Shown one piece after another: positions 5,874-30,683 of a DNA stretch of 64,000 nt. The stretch covers positions 24,696 through 88,695 of the forward strand of contig JAGALS010000059.1 of NCBI GenBank assembly GCA_017625065.1. The letters are read 5' to 3'. The number at the start of each line of letters is the position of its first letter. Positions within the stretch are counted from its first letter, which is position 1. Source of the DNA: Clostridia bacterium (GTDB taxonomy: Bacteria > Bacillota > Clostridia > Oscillospirales > CAG-272). Both the position numbers and the translations under genes were made by a program. The notes beneath the pieces were generated by a model. It searched no databases, was not told where the DNA came from, and saw nothing but the letters and a program-made list of their open reading frames with translations.

Positions 5874-8800
5874 AATTGTCCGTTTCCTTCCGTATCGTTG
5901 AGCATTTCTCTCGTGCACGCCGAGAATTCCTCGCTCATAGGTCCGCAAACACCGTTCGTATTAACGGCGCACACACGGTAATAGTAATAAGCGTGCTCTT
6001 TTAGCTCCGTATCCTCGTATCTGCCAACGACGTATTCCTCGGGCAGAACATCCGCGACAAAGGTGGCGTCACTTGGCTCAAAGCCTGCTTGCTCGCTTCT
6101 GTACAGCTTGTAATGGGAAAGATCCTTTTCGACGTTTGCGCCCCAAAGCAGGTACAAATGTCCGGAATTCTCACCCGCGGCGGCGCGCGGTCTTGTGATC
6201 AGTCCCGTGTAGACCGAGCCGATGGAGGCAGGAGCGCCGTTTGTTGAAGCGGGTGTGATCGGCTCCCGCGTCTTAAGTCGCACGGCTTCTTTGCCAAGAC
6301 GGTACGTGATAAAGCCCTTTTTGGCAGGCGTACTCGTCGGTCGCTCGTCGACGGTGGCAGGCTCGGCATCAAGCGCGGCAAAATTTGCTTTATCGCTCTC
6401 TGTGTAAAATCTTGCGATCATACCGTTCCCGTCATCTGCACGCTTCAAGCAAACAAGGCGCAGATCGGGGTCAATGTCCATGAAGCTGTGCGCTCCCTCG
6501 GGCAGATCGCCGTCCTGTGCGGAGATGCTGACCGTTTTCACGGGATTGACAAAGCGCTCCGCCATTTGCGGGATGTTTGCCGCCTTGTACCCACCCTTGT
6601 AGGATGTGATCGAATAGCGGAAGCGGTAGTTCAGATGACTTCCGCCCGGTGTGTGCATTTGCAACCAGTCGTTTGCAACATAGGAGAAGATCTGTGAGCC
6701 CTCTCCCGCATTTCCAAAGTCGGTCTTGTCGGCATGGATGTGATCGAATTCGGTCATATGCGTGTCCCGCATCATCAGCGCCACGCCGAATGTATCGTTT
6801 TCGGAGCAGCACCATTCGTTGACCGCCATATACACGTCGGTGCCGTGTCCCGTTACGTCCTTGGCGTATTCGGCGACCGCGCCGTTGAGGTGGCAAAAGC
6901 GTCGGCAATTTTCCACTTGGAAGGGGAATGCGTAATACAGATATCGGTAATAGCGATTGCAGTTGATCATGTCACTGACGTGGTGCAATTGATCGTCGAT
7001 ATCAATGCGCTTTTCATAATGTGGTAACGTCACATCTTGCACGATCTCCGCCCCCAACTCCGATAGAGACGTTCGGCTTCTTACGCAGGTGTATTCCTTT
7101 TCATAGCACACCTCAAATTCTGCCGCCGAAGGAACGCTAAAGGAGCTGTGATTATCCCGTGTGTAGACGGGCTCGTTGGCGCGGTAGGTGTTTTCAAGAT
7201 CAAGAAGCTCCTTGTCAAGCTCCTTATCATAGATAGAGCATATAGAGCCGTTCTCGCAAAATTGAATTTTGTAATAGGAATTTTCGATCGTGGGGGGCGT
7301 GCTTGTGTGCTGATACACTGAGCTCAACGGGGCAAAATTGCGCTTCGGGATCGAGGCGTATCCAAAAGAGGGGATCTTCACAAGCGCGTATTCGCTTCCG
7401 CTGTCGGATACGACAAGCTCGGTTCGCTGCTGTGCCGTGGGATTGAAAATGGCGAAGCGATCCTCGCTTGCCTTTATGTGTGAGGCGATCGTCTGCAAGG
7501 CAAGCTTGCTCTCGACCTCGGCTGTCTCGGTGGCTTTTTCGATCCAATCGCGGTGCTGCATCCACGTCTCGTAGACTCTTCTGCCGCTGTAGCCGCTGGT
7601 GCCGTATGAATGCTCGTCATTGAAAAGCAGGTGATCCCAAGCCCGACGGAAATCGGTAGCGGGATACGCGTAATCCTTGTCGATCGTTCCCGCAACCGTT
7701 GCCCATTTTTCCGCGTTGGGCAACGCTCTGTCCGCATCAAATTTTTGCGCGATCAGCTCGGGAACGGTAAGCGGATGCTGGTACCAGCCGCCCGTGATAT
7801 CTCCCTTTAATACGGGGATCTGATCGCCAAAGCGCTCTCTCAGTAAGCGGAACGGCTCGTTGGGATCTCCCAGTGTGCGAACCTGCGGGAATTTCCATTT
7901 TTTGTTCCAATCTCGGATCTGGTCGGTCAGGTACAGATTGGGTTCCTGATCATCCCCATAGCAGACAAGCACCCAGAGGTCATACGGAACCTTACGCTCA
8001 AGCAATTCCAAGCGTTTCCAGATTTGATCCTCGATCTCGGAAACGACCAGATCCCTATCCTGTAGCTTAAATGGGCGGTAGCCTATTCTGTGATAAAATC
8101 CGAACGCCTCGACATAATGGGAGCATCCCCAAACGGTCAGCCGTTCTCCCGATTTGCTTTCCCAATCAAACACCATGGGAAGAGAGGATTCCAATCGAAG
8201 GTCAATTCTTGAGCCACCGCCGCCTGCGCCTGTGTGCCAAATATATCTATGCTTGGTCCGATCATAGCTCCACACCGTGGAGGGAAGGGGGTTCCATTGG
8301 TTGGGCGCAAATATGATGTTTTTGTATCCCGCGTTGGCATACGCCTGTACCATCGACCAAGGCAAGCCGTTGTTGTCGATCATGGCAAGCGTTTCGCTTT
8401 CGATGTCCCAATGCTCCTTCAACAGCCGCTTTTCATAAGTGCTTCGGCACATTTGCTCCAAGCCGTAGGTTTGGATATGGTTTCCCGCAATGCCTGTGCA
8501 CATGCCGATCTTCTTTGTTTTGATATAGTCCTTCACAATACGGTCAGCCGCTTCTTTTCCGCGATCCATACCGTAGTTGTTCCAAAACCACGTTCCCTCC
8601 ATGGTATAGCGGTAGCGGTCGTTTTCCTCTCTGTCCTTTGTCTCGTCACAAAGCTCGGCGGCGCTATCGATAAATTGTGAGGTGTTATGGCGTTGGATAT
8701 ATTGGGAATTGTGCAATCCGATATCGGTGTGGGAGGAGACCATGATGTATAACGTCCACTCTCTCGGCTGCTTCCAGGGAGCCTCGGCTTGGATCAAAAT

Positions 8801-10032: not shown

Positions 10033-10066
10033 AAGAGGCACCGCGCAAGGCGGTGCCTCTTATTTT
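10033..10066 (+). terminator. Intrinsic terminator downstream of the AraC gene
   Basis: AAGAGGCACCGC-gcaag-GCGGTGCCTCTT followed by ATTTT. Confidence 0.75.
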
Positions 10067-10067
10067 G

Positions 10068-10085
10068 TGGTGCGGGTAAGAGGAC
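10068..10085. repeat. 18-bp duplicate of the tRNA-Leu 3' end (TGGTGCGGGTAAGAGGAC)
   Basis: Identical to 10291-10308. In both copies a terminator hairpin sits immediately before the repeat. Confidence 0.85.
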
Positions 10086-10290
10086 GCTTGCCCCACTTGC
10101 TGCGGCGATGCCGCAGACGCTTAAAGAATGCCTTGATGCCTGAACGGCATCATTTTGCAAGCAAAATCGGCATTCTTTTCTGCCGCCGCTTTATGCTGCA
10201 AACGTTCAACAATTGCTCGGGCGGCAGGGTTTTCGCCTTGGCATCCGGACCAAAACAAAAATGGCACCCAATTGGGTGCCATTTTTGTTT

Positions 10291-10377
10291 TGGTGCGGGT
10301 AAGAGGACTTGAACCTCCACGAAGTTGCCCCCACTAGAACCTGAATCTAGCGCGTCTGCCAATTCCGCCATACCCGC
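10291..10377 (-). tRNA. tRNA-Leu (anticodon CAG), CCA encoded
   Basis: The reverse complement folds as a cloverleaf by hand. It has acceptor GCGGGTA/TACCCGC, anticodon stem CTAGA/TCTAG with loop TTCAGGT, a long variable arm and T-loop GGTTCAAGTCC. Confidence 0.93.
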
Positions 10378-16785: not shown

Positions 16786-16819
16786 ATTCGTTGCTTTAAG
16801 AAAACAGAAAGGAACTGAA

Positions 16820-17863
16820 ATGTTGGAACTGCGCGAACTGATCCCCGCGATGGCGGGGCTGATGAGCATCACGGGGTATGAGACCTATGATGCCGACAAA
16901 CTGACCTCCTTGATGCAGGGCTTTGACGAAGAGATCACCGACGCCGTGGGCAATCGCGTTTTTATTCGTCGTTGCGGCCGTGAAAACGCCCCCAAAATTT
17001 TGATCGACACCCATTTTGATGAGATCGGCATGTACGTATCCGAGATCTGCGAGCAGGGCTTTCTCAAGGTCGAGCCCGTGGGCGGCTTGGACACCCGCAC
17101 ACTTCCTTCCGCAGACGTGAGGATCTACGGCAAAGAGGTGCTGGAGGGCGTGGTCGCTTCTACGCCGCCTCATCTGAAGAAAAAAGAGGAAGAAGAAAAG
17201 GTGACCCCCGTGCGCGAGCTGTTGGTCGATACGGGATACCCTACAGACGAGCTGAAAGAGCTTGTGCGTGTCGGCACGCCCGTCGGCTTTGCACCGCGCT
17301 ATACGTGGCTGCAAAACGACCGTCTTGTGGGCAAGGGACTTGATAATAAAGCGTGCTGCGCCATTGCGGCGCACGCCCTGCGTGACATTCCCGCAGCCGA
17401 GCTTGCGGGCGATGTGTATCTGCTCTTTGCCGTGCATGAGGAGACCGACCGCGTGGGCGGCACAGCCGTTGGCGGTTTTGCGATCGACCCCGATTACGCG
17501 ATGGTGATCGACGTCAATATCGGACATGCCCCGGGTAGCAAGGAAATCGGCACGGTTGAAATGGCAAAGGGCCCCTCGATCTGCCGCAGCGCCATCACCG
17601 ACCGCACCTTGACGAAGATGACCGAGGCACTTTGTGATAAAAATGAGATACCGTGGCAGCGCTGTGTTGACGCAGTCTCCACGGGAACCGATACCGTTTC
17701 GCTTCATTTGGTGGGAAAAGGGATTCCAGTTGTGGACGTTGGACTGCCTTTGCGCGCGATGCACACGTACGTGGAGCTGTTGGATATGGCCGATGCCGAG
17801 CATCTGGCGGCACTGGTCCGCGCCTTTGTGTGCGATAAAGAGATCGGGGAGGTGTTCCAATGA
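16820..17863 (+). CDS. M42-family metallopeptidase (TET/FrvX/YsdC-like), paralog 1
   Basis: HFDEIGMY motif and the VHEETDRVGG catalytic region. Confidence 0.85.
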   Translation: MLELRELIPAMAGLMSITGYETYDADKLTSLMQGFDEEITDAVGNRVFIRRCGRENAPKILIDTHFDEIGMYVSEICEQGFLKVEPVGGLDTRTLPSADVRIYGKEVLEGVVASTPPHLKKKEEEEKVTPVRELLVDTGYPTDELKELVRVGTPVGFAPRYTWLQNDRLVGKGLDNKACCAIAAHALRDIPAAELAGDVYLLFAVHEETDRVGGTAVGGFAIDPDYAMVIDVNIGHAPGSKEIGTVEMAKGPSICRSAITDRTLTKMTEALCDKNEIPWQRCVDAVSTGTDTVSLHLVGKGIPVVDVGLPLRAMHTYVELLDMADAEHLAALVRAFVCDKEIGEVFQ

Positions 17864-18918
17864 AAAGCGGCATTGAGCTGATCGAAAAATTAGCATTGTG
17901 CTTTGGACCGACCTCCTGCGAGGGCGAGGTCGAAGCAGCCATTCGTGAGGAGCTTGCGGGCACCTCCGCTGTGCTTGCAACCGACCGTATGGGAAACCTT
18001 ACAGCACACCTTCCGGGTAAAGAAAATTGCCCACGTATCCTGCTTTCCGCGCACATGGACGAGGTGGGCTTCATGATCACCCACATTGAAGATAAGGGTT
18101 ATCTTCGCTTTGATACGCTGGGCGGTATCAACACGGGGGTGCTTTCGGGCAGAGCCGTCACACTTGGGGATGAGACCAAACGCATCAGTGGCGTGATCGC
18201 GGCAAAGGGCATCCATCAGCAAAGCGCAAAGGAGCGCGAAAAGCTGCCGAAGCTCGAAGATCTTTATATCGATATCGGTACAAGCAGTCGCGAGGAGACC
18301 GAAGCATTGCTCTCTCTTGGAGATTTCGGCACCTTCGACACCCCCTTCAGCTGTTTTGGCAAGGACGGGGCGTATATCAAAGGTAAAGCGCTTGACGACC
18401 GTATGGGGTGCGCCATTCTCATTGAGGTGTTGCGCGCGCTTGACGGCAAGGATCTGCCGCTGGATCTGTGGTTTGGCTTTACCGTGCGGGAAGAGATCGG
18501 CAAATCGGGCGCAGCGGTGAGCGCAAACCGCATTGCCCCTGACTGTGCCATTGTTCTGGAGGCCACAGCGATCGCCGACGTGGCGGGTGTCGATCCCGCT
18601 TGCCGTGTGGCGACGGTGGGGGAGGGCGGCGTGATCTCGCTTCTCGATCGCTCCACCATTTACGACCGTGAACTTGTGGACTTTGCGCTTGCAACCGGCA
18701 AAAAGCATGACATTCCCGTACAGGTCAAGCGCTACGTTTCGGGCGGTAACGACGCCGCGCACATTCAGCGCAGTGGCATCGGCGTGCGGTGCTTGGCGCT
18801 TTCCGCACCCACTCGCTATCTGCACGCGCCCGTGTCTGTCGCGTCGATCAAGGATTATGAAAGTATGGTCGCACTTGTCATCGCAATGCTGTGCGATTGG
18901 AAGGAAGGAAACAAATGA
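17860..18918 (+). CDS. M42-family metallopeptidase, paralog 2
   Basis: HMDEVGFMI, DDRMGCA and TVREEIG motifs. It overlaps paralog 1 by 4 nt. Confidence 0.85.
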   Translation: MKSGIELIEKLALCFGPTSCEGEVEAAIREELAGTSAVLATDRMGNLTAHLPGKENCPRILLSAHMDEVGFMITHIEDKGYLRFDTLGGINTGVLSGRAVTLGDETKRISGVIAAKGIHQQSAKEREKLPKLEDLYIDIGTSSREETEALLSLGDFGTFDTPFSCFGKDGAYIKGKALDDRMGCAILIEVLRALDGKDLPLDLWFGFTVREEIGKSGAAVSANRIAPDCAIVLEATAIADVAGVDPACRVATVGEGGVISLLDRSTIYDRELVDFALATGKKHDIPVQVKRYVSGGNDAAHIQRSGIGVRCLALSAPTRYLHAPVSVASIKDYESMVALVIAMLCDWKEGNK

Positions 18919-19916
18919 TCAATACGTTAAAAAAATTATTGCCCAAAACGCCGTCGGTATCGGGGCGCGAAAGTGGCATTCGGGATATCATTACGGGGCT
19001 GATGCGTCCGCTTGTCGATCAGATCAGCACCGATGCGATGGGCAACCTCATTTGCCTCAAAAAGGGAAGCGGCGATGCCCCCCGCAAGGTGATGCTGTGC
19101 GCGCATATGGACGAGATCGGCTTTATTGTAACCTTTATTGAGGAAAACGGCTATCTGCGCGTCGCCCCCGTTGGCGGTATTCACTATGGCGCCGCCGCCT
19201 TTAGCGAGGTGGTGTTTGAAAACGGTGTGCGCGGTCTGCTCGTGCCCGAGGCGGACGTACCCGCAAAGGAAGCGCCCAAGGCTGAAAAATGCTATGTGGA
19301 TATCGGTGCAACCGGCAGAAAGGAGGCCGAGCGCCGTATGAAGATCGGCGATTGCTGCGCTCTTGTGCCGCATCTCACACGTCTTACCGCCAACCGCGTC
19401 GCGGGTCGCCCCTTGGACGACCGCATCGGCTGTGCTGCTTTGGTGAAGATTGCCGAGACGCTGAAAAGCCCTGTGGACGATATGTATTATGTCTTTTCCG
19501 TGCAGGAGGAGGTCGGCTGCCGCGGTGCGCGTCCTGCCGCCTTCGCCATCTCGCCCGATCTCGCGCTCATTTATGACGTGACGGGCACGGGTGACGAGCA
19601 GGGTGCAAAGCCGATGACGGTCAAGCTCGGAGAAGGTGTTGCCATTAAGATCAAGGATAATTCCGTTATTTGCAACCGCGAGCTTGTCGATGCGCTGCTG
19701 GAGTGTGCCAAGGCAAACGGGATCGCCGCGCAATGCGAGATCCTGACCTATGGCGGCACCGATACCTCGTCCGTGCAGATGACGGGCTTTGGCTGCAAGG
19801 CGGGTGCTTTGTCGATCCCGTCGCGCTATATTCATTCGGGTGTGGAGCTTGTCGATCTGCGCGATGTCAATGCCGCCGTGGAGCTGACGGTCGCCTATCT
19901 TGGAGGTGCAAAATGA
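18915..19916 (+). CDS. M42-family metallopeptidase, paralog 3
   Basis: HMDEIGFIV, DDRIGCA and SVQEEVG motifs. The start is set at the ATG at 18915, an ATGA overlap with paralog 2. Confidence 0.85.
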   Translation: MINTLKKLLPKTPSVSGRESGIRDIITGLMRPLVDQISTDAMGNLICLKKGSGDAPRKVMLCAHMDEIGFIVTFIEENGYLRVAPVGGIHYGAAAFSEVVFENGVRGLLVPEADVPAKEAPKAEKCYVDIGATGRKEAERRMKIGDCCALVPHLTRLTANRVAGRPLDDRIGCAALVKIAETLKSPVDDMYYVFSVQEEVGCRGARPAAFAISPDLALIYDVTGTGDEQGAKPMTVKLGEGVAIKIKDNSVICNRELVDALLECAKANGIAAQCEILTYGGTDTSSVQMTGFGCKAGALSIPSRYIHSGVELVDLRDVNAAVELTVAYLGGAK

Positions 19917-26661: not shown

Positions 26662-27690
26662 ATGATCTGGACACCCGCGAAACGCGCGATCTGCGCGCTG
26701 GGTTTAGGGCAGCCCGATGAGGTGCCGACCTTTGAGCTTGAATATCAGCTTTCCGAGGAAATGTTCGGCTACCCGCTTGCCGATGCGCGTCTTGGTCGCT
26801 CCGTGATCGGAACGCTGAGCGAAAAGGAGCTTGAGCGGGCAGCATACGATCTTGCGGATAAATACGCCCGTGTGTTTGGATCGAATACCGCGTACGACAT
26901 CGGCGGTGCCGCGCTTTCGGGCGATCCCGAAAAGGATGGGCGAGAGGGGCTTGATTACGCGATCGTTCCGCTTTATAACCCGATGTGGAACCATCCCGAT
27001 CACCCTGCCAGCGTCGCGTTCAGACACCGCCTGCGCGAGCATTTTGGTGATACCCGTTTGCTTGCCTGCCACGGTGACGGCACCTTTGCGATCCCGTCGG
27101 GGTCTGATATGTACGAGTTTGTCTATCGCATCGCCGACGACCCCGAAGGGGTCTTGGAGGAGGCAGAGCGCAAGGCACAGCGCGCCATCGAGAGAAACAA
27201 GCGGCAAAGAGAGGCAGGAGTGGACGTCGCGCTGCTTTGCTCCGACTATTGCTATAATTCGGGTCCCTTTCTCTCGCCCGCAATGTTTGATGAATACATC
27301 ACGCCTTTTCTTGCAAAAATCTGCAAAGCAGGCAGAGAGGACGGACTTTACGTCATCAAGCACACCGACGGCAATATTATGCCCATCATCGACTCCTTGG
27401 TGGAGGCAGGCCCCCATGCGTTGCACTCTCTGGATCCTATGGCGGGCGTGGATATCCGCGAGGTCAAGCGTCTGTACGGCGACAAGGTTGCCCTGTGCGG
27501 CAACGTGCATTGCGCGGCGCTCCAGACGGGCACGGACGAGGAGGTCATCGCCAGCGCGGAATATTGCCTCACCTACGGCAAAGCGGGCGGTGGCTACATT
27601 TTCGCCACCAGCAACATCCCCTTCAAAGGCATGCCCCCGCACCGCTATGATATGATCCTGGACATTTGGAAGAGAATGAGAAAATACTGA
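26662..27690 (+). CDS. Uroporphyrinogen decarboxylase (URO-D)-family protein (MtaA/CmuA-like methyltransferase family)
   Basis: URO-D-like C-terminal half (HTDGNIMPIIDSLVEAGPHALHSLDP). The ATG at 26662 follows AAAAGGAGAA. Confidence 0.75.
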   Translation: MIWTPAKRAICALGLGQPDEVPTFELEYQLSEEMFGYPLADARLGRSVIGTLSEKELERAAYDLADKYARVFGSNTAYDIGGAALSGDPEKDGREGLDYAIVPLYNPMWNHPDHPASVAFRHRLREHFGDTRLLACHGDGTFAIPSGSDMYEFVYRIADDPEGVLEEAERKAQRAIERNKRQREAGVDVALLCSDYCYNSGPFLSPAMFDEYITPFLAKICKAGREDGLYVIKHTDGNIMPIIDSLVEAGPHALHSLDPMAGVDIREVKRLYGDKVALCGNVHCAALQTGTDEEVIASAEYCLTYGKAGGGYIFATSNIPFKGMPPHRYDMILDIWKRMRKY

Positions 27691-28019
27691 TACGTGTTGG
27701 GTTATTTTCGCCAATGGTGAAAGAATTGTTGTAAAAATGAAAGAAAGCCCTGCTATCGGAACCGTCTATACCGGGACCCCCGGAACGGAACCTGAAACAA
27801 GACTTCCTACTAACAGTATATCACAAAACAGCAAAAAGTCAACCCCTAATGCAAGAAGTGAAAAAAGAGTCGGACAGGCGAAGTGAACTCTCTTAAAATA
27901 AGAGAGAAGCGCCCACCCATTACGGCGTATCCGGCCCCGTAGGTAACCGGATCAAAAGCGCTTCTCCCAATAGTAGTATATCACAAACAGCCTCGACTGT
28001 CAACTCCGAAGGGCGCCAA

Positions 28020-28228
28020 CCAATCACGGCGCAGCCGTGTATATCATCAATTCCGCAGGTGGATGCACACTGGCGCGTGATGATATACAAAGGCGGCATT
28101 GCCGCCTTTGATGATATACAGCCCTTCGGGCTGATGATATCCACGACTGCGTCGTGATGATATGCCAAGCCTGCGGCTTGGATGAACGAAAAAGGACTTT
28201 CGCAAAAGCGAAAGTCCTTTTTCGTTGG
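28020..28228 (+). repeat. Modular hairpin-array repeat, copy A (ends in a terminator hairpin)
   Basis: A string of short perfect hairpins separated by TATATCATCA / TGATGATAT(A/C)C linkers. It shares both ends with copy B. Confidence 0.85.
28188..28226. terminator. Bidirectional intrinsic terminator (3' end of repeat copy A, just downstream of the isomerase gene)
   Basis: AAAGGACTTTCGC-aaaa-GCGAAAGTCCTTT with A-runs and T-runs. Confidence 0.8.
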
Positions 28229-28262
28229 TGTATAGAAGAAACAGATACCGATCAGGCAAGTA

Positions 28263-29096
28263 TCACGATATACGCTCGGGTGTTTTTCCGTTGAAGATCG
28301 CAGTTGCGTTTTTCACGAAATCCGCAAAGGTCAGATCTCTGCTGCGCGAAATCGTTTTGGGGGCGGTTAAGCCGATCTCATACATCCATACCCCTTGATA
28401 ATTGACTTGCTGAAGCGCGGAGAGCAGCGCCTGCCAATCAACTTGTCCCTCGCCGGGGAGCCAATGCTTTTCGTCAACGAAATCGTAATCGGACACGTGC
28501 ATTGTTACGATCTTGTCCGATAACTGATTTACGAAGTTGGTGTTGCTTTCGCTTAAAAGATGATTGGTGTCAAAGCAAACGCGGAGCTTATCGTTGGCGG
28601 AGATCAGCTGCTGTATCTCTTGTGCCGTGTTACCAAGGCAGGTTCTCGGCAGATCCTCAACGGCGATGACCGCGCCGTTGCGGTGAGCGATCTCTGCAAG
28701 CTGATCCAACGTTTGCATGGAATATTTGAGGCGATCGCTTCGATCATTCGGTGCAATGGGCTCTGCGCTAGGATGAACGACGAATTTATCAACGCCGACA
28801 TCGGCGGCTTTTTCGATCAGCGAGGTGTATAGCTTTATGGAATTTTCGCGGAGCTCCGGATTTAAGGAAGCAATGTCTATGATCCTGAACGGACAGAAGG
28901 GCAAGTGATAGGACCAGAGATCGATATGATAACGGTCGGATAATTTTTGTACTTCCTTATAGTCAGTTGAGTTGCATTGGTCCAGCGGCAGGGCGATTTC
29001 GATGGCAGCAATTTGGTTTTGCTCTAATTTTTCAAAATTTTCCGCCGTCAGTGCAAATCCGCAGCTGGAAAGACCGATCTTATACATTTTAAGCAT
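28263..29096 (-). CDS. Sugar phosphate isomerase/epimerase (xylose isomerase-like TIM barrel)
   Basis: 277 aa with the family-typical pattern (VHPS..., CFDTNH, HVSD). Confidence 0.8.
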   Translation of the reverse strand: MLKMYKIGLSSCGFALTAENFEKLEQNQIAAIEIALPLDQCNSTDYKEVQKLSDRYHIDLWSYHLPFCPFRIIDIASLNPELRENSIKLYTSLIEKAADVGVDKFVVHPSAEPIAPNDRSDRLKYSMQTLDQLAEIAHRNGAVIAVEDLPRTCLGNTAQEIQQLISANDKLRVCFDTNHLLSESNTNFVNQLSDKIVTMHVSDYDFVDEKHWLPGEGQVDWQALLSALQQVNYQGVWMYEIGLTAPKTISRSRDLTFADFVKNATAIFNGKTPERIS

Positions 29097-29365
29097 CTCC
29101 TTTGGGGTTACGTATTTCTACATAACTATAACAAAAGAATGGGCGTTTGTCAAGAGTGACGCCTTGAAAAATAAGGCAGAAGCCGAGAAAAAGCTGCGCC
29201 ATACCGTGGAGCTGTTCCGCAAAGCGTTGACAATGATGCAATAAAGGGTGTAATGATAACGAGTATACGAACCGCCGGTGGGCTGAAGGAATTCTTTCCG
29301 TAGAGGACAGAAGCAGTTTGATAGGGAACAAGCGGTAAGTGATTCAGCTAAAGGAGAGTGCTTTT

Positions 29366-29662
29366 TTGGGGAACCTATTCGCCGCGCTGCGGGCGAACTA
29401 CGAGGGCGACAAGGTGTTTACCAAGAAGGAGGTCGCCGCGGCGATCTTGACCGTTGATGCTTTGCAGAAGATGCCTGCGAAGGAGCGCAGCGAGCTTTCT
29501 ACGTATTTATGGAGAGGGTACAACGAGCGCCTGAACGAGCAGGGCTTTGGCTACCCAATCACGGCGCAGCCGTGTATAGCATCAATTCCGCAGGAATTGC
29601 ATATCATCAAGGCAACGCCTTGTATCTCATCAAGCCGCAGGTGGATGCACGCTGGCGCGTGA
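29366..29662 (+). CDS. Doubtful small ORF or gene remnant running into repeat copy B
   Basis: TTG at 29366 follows AAGGAGAG. The N-terminal ~65 codons look protein-like, but the C-terminal third is a translation of the hairpin array. Confidence 0.25.
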   Translation: MGNLFAALRANYEGDKVFTKKEVAAAILTVDALQKMPAKERSELSTYLWRGYNERLNEQGFGYPITAQPCIASIPQELHIIKATPCISSSRRWMHAGA

Positions 29663-29778
29663 TGATATACAGCCCGAAGGGCTGATGATATCCACGACTG
29701 CGTCGTGATGATATGCCAAGCCTGCGGCTTGGATGAACGAAAAAGGCTTTCGCAAAAGCGAAAGCCCTTTTTCGTTGG
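29555..29778 (+). repeat. Modular hairpin-array repeat, copy B (ends in a terminator hairpin)
   Basis: Same ends as copy A, with internal modules gained or lost relative to it. Confidence 0.85.
29739..29776. terminator. Bidirectional intrinsic terminator (3' end of repeat copy B, just downstream of the SGNH gene)
   Basis: GGCTTTCGC-aaaa-GCGAAAGCC with A-runs and T-runs. Confidence 0.8.
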
Positions 29779-29787
29779 CGAGCGTCT

Positions 29788-30489
29788 TTAACGAAGATCG
29801 AACCCCAATATGCTTTTTGCGGCGTCCAGCCACAATTTCGCAAGGAAGCCGTGCATTGCCTCGGTGGGATGAATTCCATCCCACAGCCAATATGCATAAG
29901 GGTCGATATCACATCCGTTTTCGGCAAGGGTATGCACATTTTCCTTTACGAGCGTTTCCAGCGGCTTTTGAACCGGTATAAAGGTCGCACCGTAGTCATC
30001 CGCGATCTTTTTTATCATCTGCTGCTTTGATCTAAACACAGACATAAAATCATCATAATGCTCCTTGCATTTGCCAACAGGAAGGAAAAACGGCTCGATA
30101 AGTATCAGCTTCAAGCTCGGGTTTTGCGCCATTGATAGGTCGAGAAGCTCTCTGTAAGTCTTATCAAAATGAGCCAAGTGTGCCGCAGCACCGTCAGGAT
30201 AATATCCGTCACGATTTCCCTCACCGTTAATTCCAAGCAAAACACTTAGCACATCGGGATGCTCGTTTAATACGTCGAGTTCCCAACGCAGCCGTGCTTT
30301 GTCTACTGAATCTCCGCTCACGCCTCGATTTATCAAGAAATAGCGACCCGGATAGCTCAATCCAAGATGTGAGGCAATATTAAAAACGTAGGAGTGGCCT
30401 ATCTGATGATTTAAATCCCAACGGGACTCTGCCTTTTTATAGCGATTACCATCGGTTATTGAATCTCCCTGAAAAAGAATACGAATCAT
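29788..30489 (-). CDS. SGNH/GDSL-family hydrolase
   Basis: MIRILFQGDSITDG block I. The start is at 30489 with RBS GAGGAGAG. Confidence 0.8.
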   Translation of the reverse strand: MIRILFQGDSITDGNRYKKAESRWDLNHQIGHSYVFNIASHLGLSYPGRYFLINRGVSGDSVDKARLRWELDVLNEHPDVLSVLLGINGEGNRDGYYPDGAAAHLAHFDKTYRELLDLSMAQNPSLKLILIEPFFLPVGKCKEHYDDFMSVFRSKQQMIKKIADDYGATFIPVQKPLETLVKENVHTLAENGCDIDPYAYWLWDGIHPTEAMHGFLAKLWLDAAKSILGFDLR

Positions 30490-30561
30490 TTTTCTCTCCT
30501 CTTTTTTGTGTGCAAATTCATTTTTTGATCCCAATTTCCCGCGAGTCCTTCACACCATAAA

Positions 30562-30606: not shown

Positions 30607-30683
30607 TGGTGGAGACAACTGGAATCGAACCAGTGACCCCTTGCATGTCAAGCAAGTACTCTAACCAGCTGAGCTATGCCTCC
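30607..30683 (-). tRNA. tRNA-Val (anticodon GAC), CCA encoded
   Basis: Hand-folded cloverleaf with acceptor GGAGGCA/TGTCTCC, anticodon stem CTTGC/GCAAG with loop TTGACAT, and T-loop GGTTCGATTCC. Confidence 0.92.

Follow-up and report, generated by a model that had tools for sequence, protein, structure and literature searches.

Two hairpin arrays in a Clostridia genome belong to a widespread modular repeat family found at transcription-unit boundaries

Background

Two similar arrays of small hairpins are found in a 64-kb stretch of Clostridia DNA (the whole of which is referred to here as the window), and they raise the question of whether they represent a local duplication or copies of a wider family, and what function such an element might serve. 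The analysis described below indicated that copies A and B are members of a widespread modular hairpin-repeat family of gut Clostridia, which apparently has not been described before. Our leading, though tentative, reading of the family is that it is a new REP/BIME-like boundary element acting as single-stranded DNA (ssDNA).

Organization of the two copies

An earlier note on this DNA had described two copies with shared ends, whole-module differences and one flipped loop, all of which is true of copies A (28020-28228) and B (29555-29778) (Table 1). Both begin with CCAATCACGGCGCAGCCGTG, and they have in common a right part of 87 nt, with 97% identity, that is followed by the terminator. The flipped loop is seen in a hairpin that reads CAGCCC-TTC-GGGCTG in copy A and CAGCCC-GAA-GGGCTG in copy B (29670-29684). 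Copy A equals copy B less 47 nt, the missing stretch being located between CCGCAGG direct repeats (29588-29594 and 29635-29641); the sequence ATTCCGCAGG, previously taken for a hairpin unit of copy A, is instead the junction of this deletion. Copy A also has one module more, consisting of the extra hairpin and its linker, between two TGATGATATAC repeats. The modular build was thus confirmed, with whole units gained or lost between the copies. The earlier note had called every stem perfect; the central hairpin of copy A has one A.C mismatch. The terminator stems do differ between copies, but not by a clean compensated indel: that of copy B shows a 1-nt deletion and a T>C change, leaving one C bulged.

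A search of the window with TGATGATATNC, allowing at most 1 mismatch, gave 21 matches where 3.2 were expected; 11 of the 21 lie inside the two copies, as do all 9 of the 9 exact matches. Folding z-scores of the copies ranged from -7.3 to -12.5 on either strand. A family profile made solely from 44 arrays of other genomes recovered copy B at full length (E = 1.3e-49, 64-kb window search) and copy A as three pieces, with no further match in the 64 kb.

Each copy is joined to a two-way intrinsic terminator, a G+C-rich stem-loop with a T-run and here also with an A-run in front. The terminator of copy A closes the minus-strand isomerase gene (28263-29096), and that of copy B closes the minus-strand GDSL hydrolase gene (29788-30534). 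Copy B is followed on the minus strand by the isomerase unit, whose promoter is separated from the copy by approximately 400 nt of apparent gene remnants. The copies punctuate three successive minus-strand units, in the order GDSL hydrolase, copy B, isomerase, copy A and geneless promoters. The notion of an accessory segment bracketed by arrays is not upheld, as the copies just trail two successive minus-strand genes, like arrays elsewhere. Homologues of the isomerase (at most 62% identity) in 23 metagenome loci were accompanied by arrays in none, so the element is not tied to the isomerase gene. The outward promoter next to copy A stands where the family usually has a promoter and has no ORF behind it; a second copy of this promoter is located at 27815-27842. 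The interval 27690-28188, in which no terminator had been seen, does contain a weak terminator-like site on the + strand (27705-27723), directly after the URO-D-family gene.

Table 1. Positions in the window of the two arrays, their parts and the adjoining transcription signals.
Feature	Position	Strand	Remarks
Outward promoter	27975..28003	-	TTGACA-17-TATACT, TG before -10 box; just past copy A left end
Copy A	28020..28184	+	variant array, linker pattern L R R R R
Copy A hp0	28025-28039
Copy A L1 linker	28041-28049
Copy A deletion junction ATTCCGCAGG	28050-28059
Copy A central hairpin	28066-28079		one A.C mismatch
Copy A R linkers	at 28078, 28109, 28132, 28155
Copy A extra hairpin	28088-28110
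Copy A flipped-loop hairpin	28119-28133
Copy A hairpin	28142-28156
Copy A last hairpin	28165-28181
Two-way intrinsic terminator joined to copy A	28185..28226	.	perfect 19-bp stem, A-run before, T-run after
Isomerase gene promoter	29125..29153	-	TTGACA-17-TATAGT
Copy B	29555..29735	+	canonical array, linker pattern L L L R R R
Copy B hp0; L1	29560-29574; 29576-29584
Copy B hp1; L2	29583-29599; 29601-29609
Copy B hp2; L3	29608-29622; 29624-29632
Copy B half-hairpin X	29631-29641
Copy B central hairpin; R1	29648-29661; 29660-29668
Copy B hairpin; R2	29670-29684; 29683-29691
Copy B hairpin; R3	29693-29707; 29706-29714
Copy B last hairpin	29716-29732		contains X'
Two-way intrinsic terminator joined to copy B	29736..29776	.

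Distribution and architecture of the family

The repeat is more than a local duplication, since the same architecture was found in >100 Clostridia MAG species, the carriers being mainly Acutalibacteraceae, Oscillospiraceae and Christensenellaceae. Its unit is a 4-8 bp hairpin in a CA...TG frame plus the linker ATATCATCA. In the canonical form, to which copy B corresponds, three ATATCATCA linkers are followed by three TGATGATAT linkers and lastly by the two-way terminator, each pair of linkers being separated by a variable hairpin. The canonical element therefore consists of two facing arms of 3-4 units each, with ATATCATCA reading on the top strand in the left arm and on the bottom strand in the right arm. 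Forty-seven arrays follow this LLLRRR pattern, and others have a single arm of 5-10 units. The terminator arrangement, with A-run and T-run both kept, is present in nearly all members. MITEs have terminal inverted repeats with target-site duplications and show presence/absence polymorphism; here the two arms repeat a single type of module in inverted orientation, and no flanking direct repeats were noticed.

Several copies can occur in one genome: four MAGs have copies on different contigs, and approximately 11 loci have 2-3 copies within one 8-kb block. Many arrays are located at contig ends, which suggests that MAG assemblies are probably broken by the multicopy repeat. The arrays also give rise to spurious ORF calls.

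As the earlier note had supposed, the element corresponds to no Rfam family, the gathering score being reached in the window by two tRNAs only; at a permissive threshold, the best sub-threshold match in 27600-30000 was unrelated (E = 0.23). BLASTN of copy B against phage and plasmid records gave no match, an exact 33-mer from the window copies had 0 matches in metagenomes, and none of three window proteins had an identical recorded entry. A looser three-linker pattern matched 120 loci in a viral scan, 0 of them true arrays, and these matches are noise, apparently from coding repeats. The literature on the linker sequence and on REP-like repeats in Clostridia yielded nothing relevant. Among the 24 window ORFs scanned against Pfam there was no HUH, RAYT, transposase or integrase gene. 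Clustering of ORFs within 4 kb of arrays revealed no recurring enzyme, the top cluster being spurious ORFs over arrays and tRNAs.

Hairpins and strand polarity

Across 186 distinct hairpins the stems vary while the linkers stay fixed, with 1049 Watson-Crick pairs versus 21 others, as predicted earlier; the stems are under selection for pairing. The loops are strongly polar. On the ATATCATCA strand there are 61 GNA triloops and 17 GNRA tetraloops, compared with 4 and 0, respectively, on the opposite strand. A C-G pair closes the loop in approximately 146 of the 186 hairpins, and triloops make up 61% of the loops, mostly as C-GNA-G. G.T and A.C mismatches stand at 6:1 in the left arm but at 1:9 in the right (Fisher p = 0.004), and the A.C mismatch in the central hairpin of copy A agrees with this polarity. 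Since both the loop polarity and the tolerance of G.T reverse at the centre, the element is made of two arms that face each other.

A strand-specific hairpin with a C-G-closed GNA triloop is what characterizes the ssDNA mini-hairpin signals, along with recognition by a primase or a single-strand-specific polymerase; such a hairpin is found here. The d(C-GNA-G) mini-hairpins serve as ssDNA signals at the G4 origin, RSF1010 ssiA and the N4 promoters, and are exceptionally stable as DNA, whereas their RNA versions are much weaker (PMC13037366; PMC3201870). This difference supports the ssDNA reading, as do the conserved stem pairing, the strand polarity, the occurrence of several copies in some genomes and the change by way of short repeats. 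Against it, all of the hairpins are palindromic, so that either strand, or RNA from either, would fold as well.

A K-turn or C/D box (UGAUGA) was considered and rejected, as there is no partner strand. A CRISPR-like array was dropped on account of the very short unit and the palindromic spacers, and DnaA boxes or DnaA-trios because polarity and sequence are wrong.

Linkers and long-range pairing

The earlier note had modelled the element as a single structured RNA of the + strand, an sRNA or 3' UTR, whose complementary linkers zip into a rod from which the hairpins protrude. Minimum-free-energy folds do pair both halves (z -7 to -12), a terminator follows on the + strand, and a top-strand gene ends at the left of 11 of 61 arrays, copy A among them. 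However, the linkers depart from their consensus 58 times, and just 2 of these changes are matched by a compensating one in the nested partner; the common variants of L3 and of R1 are independent of one another (p = 1.0). That left and right linkers are complementary follows from both halves being one and the same module, oppositely oriented. The - strand folds just as well, and in most arrays the left side carries a divergent gene start and no forward promoter. A single + strand transcript also fits poorly with the reversal of loop and mismatch polarity at the centre, where the polarity changes from the + strand (left half) to the - strand (right half). The rod is largely refuted by the covariation test, and we consider an RNA of this kind very unlikely.

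An unexpected long-range pairing was found instead. X and X' form a helix of 10-11 bp across the right arm, and this helix covaries. It is not accounted for by the ssDNA reading.

The linkers are spaced 19-31 nt apart, and this variable spacing implies that the sites are not phased on the duplex, which is consistent with the ssDNA reading. An array of sites for a protein that binds duplex DNA, similar to iterons or operators and regulating the adjacent promoter, could explain a conserved 9-bp motif in direct and inverted copies adjoining a -35 box. With sites 19-31 bp apart, many arrays without an adjacent promoter, and intervening sequences that stay palindromic while they change, which such binding does not require, this possibility seems hardly credible.

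Position relative to genes and promoters

The right end of the array is fused to the two-way terminator closing a bottom-strand gene, in about half of the cases a tRNA operon. Of 78 arrays, 39 have a tRNA gene on the opposite strand 54-67 nt past their last linker (35 of the 64 with enough flank), and none has one at the other end. At the left end, AATCAA often serves as the -35 box (TTGATT) for the bottom-strand promoter that follows; TTGATT-N16-18-TAnnnT begins 13-16 nt past L1 in 20 arrays. The units flanking the arrays are mostly co-directional. Arrays lie behind the same tRNA operons in different species (for example Gln-His-Arg-Gly in loci L057, L110 and L130), but with scrambled modules. 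This suggests a host function anchored to the site and not a selfish mobile repeat, which counts against the ssDNA reading. Two candidates were rejected in this context: arm-type integrase sites at tRNA genes, as an integrase is absent and the hairpins covary, and type III toxin-antitoxin repeats, as the order is wrong.

The order of terminator, array and promoter between mostly co-directional units raises a serious rival, namely an RNA-level two-way transcription insulator. Read-through from either side would transcribe an arm in its sense direction first, owing to the inward-facing arms, and the stable hairpins together with G-free, C-containing linkers (UAUAUCAUCA) would offer a platform on which Rho or an RNase, for instance, could load or act. 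Read-through of the tRNA operon would thereby be kept from the next gene, and antisense transcripts from the tRNA operon. The tolerance of G.T (G.U in RNA) on the sense strand, the 17 GNRA tetraloops among the sense-strand loops, and the retention of both terminator runs, implying termination both ways, are in agreement with this. On the other hand, most loops are triloops, chiefly C-GNA-G, which are weak in RNA (PMC13037366), and little RNA is expected from an array behind a strong terminator. Heavily structured RNA is a poor substrate for Rho, and the array RNA would be of that kind. Moreover, the X:X' helix is left without explanation, and the one-armed arrays in operons and the array of phage contig L003 are transcribed antisense. 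In L003 all genes are on the + strand and the sense strand of the array is the - strand, opposed to all of them, which favours the ssDNA reading. We regard the insulator as unlikely, although it is far from negligible: loops of the GNRA type, like the constant linkage to a terminator, suit an RNA role just as well as an ssDNA one.

A second rival is a host signal for ssDNA initiation or restart downstream of heavily transcribed tRNA operons, at which C-GNA-G hairpins would exclude SSB and mark sites of priming or replisome reloading on the exposed strand, the two arms serving forks from either side. Similar hairpins mark the G4 origin and RSF1010 ssiA, and the RSF1010 ssi sites are on opposite strands (PMC13037366). 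The two array-bearing phage contigs encode primase-helicases within a few kb, although these are the only phage cases. The bottom strand, which is the sense strand of the terminator-side arm, is G-rich in 43 of 62 loci (p = 0.003), as expected of a lagging-strand template, but this result is confounded by gene orientation, and the window has the opposite orientation. In addition, the sense strand of one-armed arrays lies on the presumed leading-strand template. The trinucleotides known for Firmicute primases are CTA or TTA, and the linker contains neither. This explanation appears quite doubtful.

A putative mechanism

In the ssDNA reading, either replication or the supercoiling that arises between a pair of active transcription units would open the duplex, whereupon the strand-specific C-GNA-G mini-hairpins could fold and present the short G-free linkers to a putative trans-acting protein. 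Slippage or recombination between repeated motifs of 7-11 nt may lead to loss and gain of whole modules, and template switching within hairpins to loop flips; DNA-level hairpin processes, which the earlier note had already invoked, are a sensible source of both. Given this position, the upstream terminator would also be insulated from the downstream promoter. No enzyme or binding protein for such a system was found among the 24 window ORFs.

In approximately 0.8 Mb of array-bearing loci, PF05635 was the only recurring neighbour gene family, and there was no recurring integrase. In 15 of 119 loci, the promoter embedded in the array is immediately followed by a gene for a PF05635 protein. A bolder proposal is that the arrays are a new class of chromosomal ssDNA signal at transcription-unit boundaries, above all those behind tRNA operons, read by a dedicated protein, possibly PF05635 (an Avd-like four-helix-bundle), with X:X' switching between two folds; we judge this combination improbable.

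Comparison with known systems

REP and BIME sequences of Proteobacteria, with REPINs and their RAYT transposases, are the closest parallels considered. They are present in many copies; like the arrays, they are short extragenic palindromes in mosaic clusters with conserved linkers, have polar units in both orientations within one cluster, occur behind genes between co-directional or convergent units, and vary by whole units; their hairpins are preserved through compensatory substitutions, and inverted pairs of larger size exist, as in REPINs (PMC2817692, PMC3116915, PMC3337134, PMC3733652). REPs are defined by a palindrome that bears a tetranucleotide tag, GTAG or CGTC, at one end (PMC3733652), and BIMEs by regularly spaced units of alternating orientation within a cluster (PMC2817692). 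RAYT-associated families also have a RAYT (HUH Y1) gene, flanked by the repeats, somewhere in the genome. The GTAG/CGTC tag is absent here, the tag being ATATCATCA with stems framed by CA...TG, and 3-4 units in one direction are followed by 3-4 in the other instead of alternating. The stem sequences are also far more variable, the arrays are fused to an intrinsic terminator with a strong bias to the ends of tRNA operons, no RAYT or other HUH gene was found near arrays, and the hosts are Clostridia, which the 2013 REP survey does not mention.

The signals of the G4 origin, RSF1010 ssiA and ssiB and the N4 early promoter resemble the present hairpins in their 5-7 bp stems, C-G-closed GNA triloop and one-strand reading, and RSF1010 carries a pair of them, one on each strand (PMC13037366). 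Each of these signals is a lone site in an origin or promoter of a phage or plasmid, whereas the arrays have 7-8 hairpins per element with a conserved linker, are chromosomal and can occur in several copies per genome. Integron attC sites share conservation of structure over sequence, strand-selective folding as ssDNA, and location at gene 3' ends in strings. However, an attC site is one imperfect hairpin with R''/L''-L'/R' boxes and a GTTRRRY core; the consensus here lacks this core, the hairpins are many, small and perfect, terminators and promoters stand between the genes, and no integrase is nearby. The pneumococcal BOX element is a modular intergenic repeat with a variable number of internal units and possible effects on the expression of neighbours. 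BOX modules are long conserved sequences, whereas the arrays, although similarly modular and intergenic, consist of variable hairpins and a 9-nt linker and have no similarity to BOX in sequence or host.

Significance

The element is carried by >100 species of gut and rumen Clostridia, most of them uncultured, and neither Rfam nor the REP surveys compared include it. Its grammar is unusually strict, with two arms that face each other, C-GNA-G hairpins of defined polarity, a fixed linker and a long-range helix that covaries, and this makes it directly testable. It also offers a compact natural terminator-insulator-promoter part. If PF05635 proteins do read the arrays, this would be the first function of PF05635 outside diversity-generating retroelements, and gut Clostridia would possess a built-in terminator-insulator-promoter cassette. 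If the arrays are boundary elements, they would explain how very strong tRNA transcription is kept separate from neighbouring genes.

Two array copies in the window

The two hairpin-array copies, A and B, lie in the same orientation and share their first 40 nt and an 87-nt right part (97% identity), and each carries an attached terminator. With at most one mismatch allowed, the window has 21 matches to TGATGATATNC, where 3.2 were expected, and all nine exact matches fell within the two copies. Folding of both strands, as the earlier note had proposed, gave z-scores of -7.3 to -12.5 for the two copies, a far better fold than that of shuffled sequence in every case; the copies are real. Their interiors differ by loss and gain of modules and by a flipped loop, much as first described, and the differences have simple origins. 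The 47 nt between two CCGCAGG direct repeats of copy B are missing from copy A, copy A has an extra hairpin-plus-linker unit flanked by two TGATGATATAC repeats, one hairpin has an inverted loop (TTC versus GAA), and a 1-nt deletion with a T>C change leaves a bulged C in the copy B terminator. Arrays change by whole modules, via short direct repeats. Within apparent gene remnants begins a 107-aa plus-strand ORF (29339-29662) that has a good ribosome-binding site and no Pfam match. No stop codon interrupts it ahead of copy B, which it enters directly and which may have replaced its 3' end.

Features around the arrays (window features in minus-strand order)
Feature	Location	Strand	Remark
tRNA	30610-30683	-	first in order
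GDSL hydrolase	29788-30534	-	followed by terminator and copy B
Copy B	29555-29778	+	same orientation as copy A
Apparent gene remnants			~400 nt, between copy B and isomerase promoter
Isomerase promoter	29153-29125	-	
Isomerase gene	28263-29096	-	followed by terminator and copy A
Copy A	28020-28228	+	same orientation as copy B
Promoter	27975-28003	-	TTGACA-17-TATACT, beyond copy A
Second promoter copy	27815-27842	-	TTGACT-16-TATACT
URO-D-family gene		+	convergent end, last in order
PF05635 gene, locus L157	3624-3968		behind array promoter
PF05635 gene, locus L139	1093-1425		behind array promoter
PF05635 gene, locus L142	6788-7129		behind array promoter
PF05635 gene, 12 other loci			behind array promoter

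The order of units on the minus strand indicates that copies A and B punctuate successive units, and other loci have a comparable 2-3 arrays per 8 kb among the matches listed. The 1.3-kb segment between the copies bore no marks of a mobile cassette, and isomerase homologues at 23 metagenome loci are without arrays, which argues against the earlier view of the copies as the bracket of an accessory segment. A search for a transposase or HUH gene, also suggested earlier, found no transposase, integrase or HUH enzyme among the 24 window ORFs scanned. The two promoters beyond copy A are near-consensus, lie within a 23-nt direct repeat and are directed at the 3' end of the URO-D-family gene; no ORF lies downstream of them, and the ~90 nt behind the second fold modestly (z = -2.1).

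Elsewhere in the window, a 34-nt direct repeat (10052-10085 and 10275-10308, 85% identity, copies 223 nt apart) covers a terminator tail and the 3' end of a minus-strand tRNA gene (10294-10377), and looks like an att-type scar of an element once integrated at this tRNA. A region of about 2.8 kb (16800-19650, GC 0.56-0.59) has only ORFs that are short or of odd composition, and a 394-aa minus-strand ORF (16796-17980) had no Pfam match.

Family and distribution

A genome scan gave at least 119 blocks with arrays, nearly all of those listed coming from Clostridia MAGs of animal guts; carriers among the matches listed were Acutalibacteraceae, Oscillospiraceae, unclassified Eubacteriales, Christensenellaceae and Ruminococcus. 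The search of related genomes called for earlier thus revealed a family, not a local duplication. Among the matches listed, both linker orientations were present in 91 arrays and in the commonest pattern (47 arrays) three ATATCATCA linkers precede three TGATGATAT linkers, which makes copy B canonical and copy A a variant. From 44 arrays, all of other genomes, a profile was made that matched copy B at full length on the plus strand (E = 1.3e-49) and copy A in three pieces, and found no other array in the 64 kb. Viral contigs of four kinds also contained true homologues, recovered with a two-linker pattern. No Rfam family matched the array, blastn against phage and plasmid records gave no match, and a survey of REP families mentions neither Clostridia nor Firmicutes. 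The element is modular, widespread and apparently undescribed, with DNA-type variation, as the earlier note had supposed. At many loci (e.g. L059, L071, L079, L170) only a few hundred bases or less separate the array from a contig end, as expected of a multicopy repeat that breaks metagenome assemblies.

Anatomy and polarity of the array

In window plus orientation, the array starts with AAATCA and hairpin 0, followed by linker L1 and hairpin 1 (usually ATTCC-GNA-GGAAT), L2 and hairpin 2, and L3, a segment X and an A/T-rich spacer with ATAC or ATGC at its end. After a central hairpin, often ACGC-nnnn-GCGT, the right half runs R1, hairpin, R2, hairpin, R3, then (G/A)CC, the last hairpin and GGATAAAAAAA, and closes with a long terminator stem and T-run. 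Stems start with CA and end with TG, and since these bases belong to the stem the unpaired linker is only ~8 nt. Stem sequences vary widely between arrays, and pairing was kept under the stem test proposed earlier, with 1049 Watson-Crick pairs versus 21 others in 186 distinct hairpins. At L131 (826-1030) and L123 (2134-2404), one-armed arrays immediately precede a ribosome-binding site and start codon; their 9-10 units comprise 3-4 hairpin types that recur in constant order, a sign of tandem amplification.

The ATATCATCA-reading strand carries 61 GNA triloops and 17 GNRA tetraloops, versus 4 and 0 on the opposite strand, and C-G nearly always closes the loop. In top-strand reading, the ratio of G.T to A.C mismatches is 6:1 for the left arm and 1:9 for the right (p = 0.004). 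Both polarities place the sense strand on top in the left arm and on the bottom in the right, so the element is two arms facing each other and probably not one structured RNA. Facing arms of opposite sense account for the complementary linkers, and linker pairing is not needed. The linker-zipped rod of the earlier note did not hold up: departures from the linker consensus were compensated in the nested partner in only 2 of 58 cases, and the frequent L3 variant ATCTCATCA and R1 variant TGATGAGAT occurred independently. In minimum-free-energy folds the rod arises as a by-product of the quasi-palindrome.

A long-range helix

X, the 10-11 nt right after L3, is complementary to X', the loop and 3' arm of the last hairpin, ~100 nt off. 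At least six sequence classes covary, among them AAGCCGCAG with CTGCGGCTT, TTGCGAAAG with CTTTCGCAA, AGCCGACAG with CTGTCGGCT, TTACGGAG with CTCCGTAA, and AGTCGCAG with CTGCGACT. Mean complementarity was 9.95/11 versus 7.71 ± 0.25 with permuted partners; across 42 distinct arrays 97.3% of cells paired versus 79.4% in shuffles (0/500), and 4 of 7 pairs changed on both sides. The competing local hairpin reached 94.9%. Every array kept at least one of the two helices, and seven kept X:X' alone.

Genomic context and level of action

The terminator end is always the right end. Among the matches listed, 39 of 78 oriented arrays have an opposite-strand tRNA gene 54-67 nt beyond the last linker, a distance at which it directly adjoins the terminator, and none has a tRNA on the left; of the 64 with enough flank, 35 adjoin such a tRNA, and in 11 a bottom-strand protein gene ends there. 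The tRNAs are of all kinds. Identical terminators follow tRNA-Glu, tRNA-Leu and tRNA-Trp in different species, so the terminator travels with the array, and behind one Gln-His-Arg-Gly tRNA operon (L057, L110, L130; different species) the modules are quite different. To the left of 38 of 61 arrays listed, a bottom-strand gene begins. In 20 of the arrays listed, a TTGATT-17-TATAAT promoter takes its -35 box from the conserved end AATCAA, and a Shine-Dalgarno site and start codon come after it at a constant offset of 61-64 nt regardless of the gene. Directly behind this promoter, 15 of 119 loci among the matches listed have a PF05635 four-helix-bundle gene (E = 2e-18), the only recurring family among ORFs within 4 kb of arrays. 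Across species these proteins share 80-90% identity, with truncated copies at some loci (L070, L080, L121). PF05635 takes its Pfam name from a 23S rRNA intervening sequence and resembles Avd of diversity-generating retroelements (PMC10053308).

This place between terminator and promoter, like the inward-facing arms, would be well explained by the main rival reading, a two-way insulator at the RNA level, which leaves unaccounted for the loop type and the one-armed arrays transcribed antisense. We favour action as single-stranded DNA. In DNA, C-GNA-G mini-hairpins have extraordinary stability, far above that of their RNA counterparts, and they serve as single-strand signals in the G4 origin, RSF1010 ssiA and N4 promoters (PMC13037366; PMC3201870). 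Triloops make up 61% of loops, polarity flips within the element, and on phage contig L003 all genes lie on one strand and the array's sense strand is the other; together these suggest that the array would act as single-stranded DNA. The phage contig L003, noted at 7660-8800, carries genes for helicase, primase, RusA, terminase and portal; iteron-like repeats come after the primase gene, and a one-armed five-module array with terminator lies immediately ahead of the gene for the small terminase. A further possibility is a priming or restart signal; in 43 of 62 loci among the matches listed the bottom strand is the G-rich one, a result confounded by gene orientation.

Of known systems, REP/BIME elements are closest in kind, but the array has neither their tag nor their arrangement, and no RAYT was found among the 24 window ORFs or the genes near arrays. 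The array belongs to the extragenic-palindrome kind, with a strict, unusual grammar and a long-range helix.
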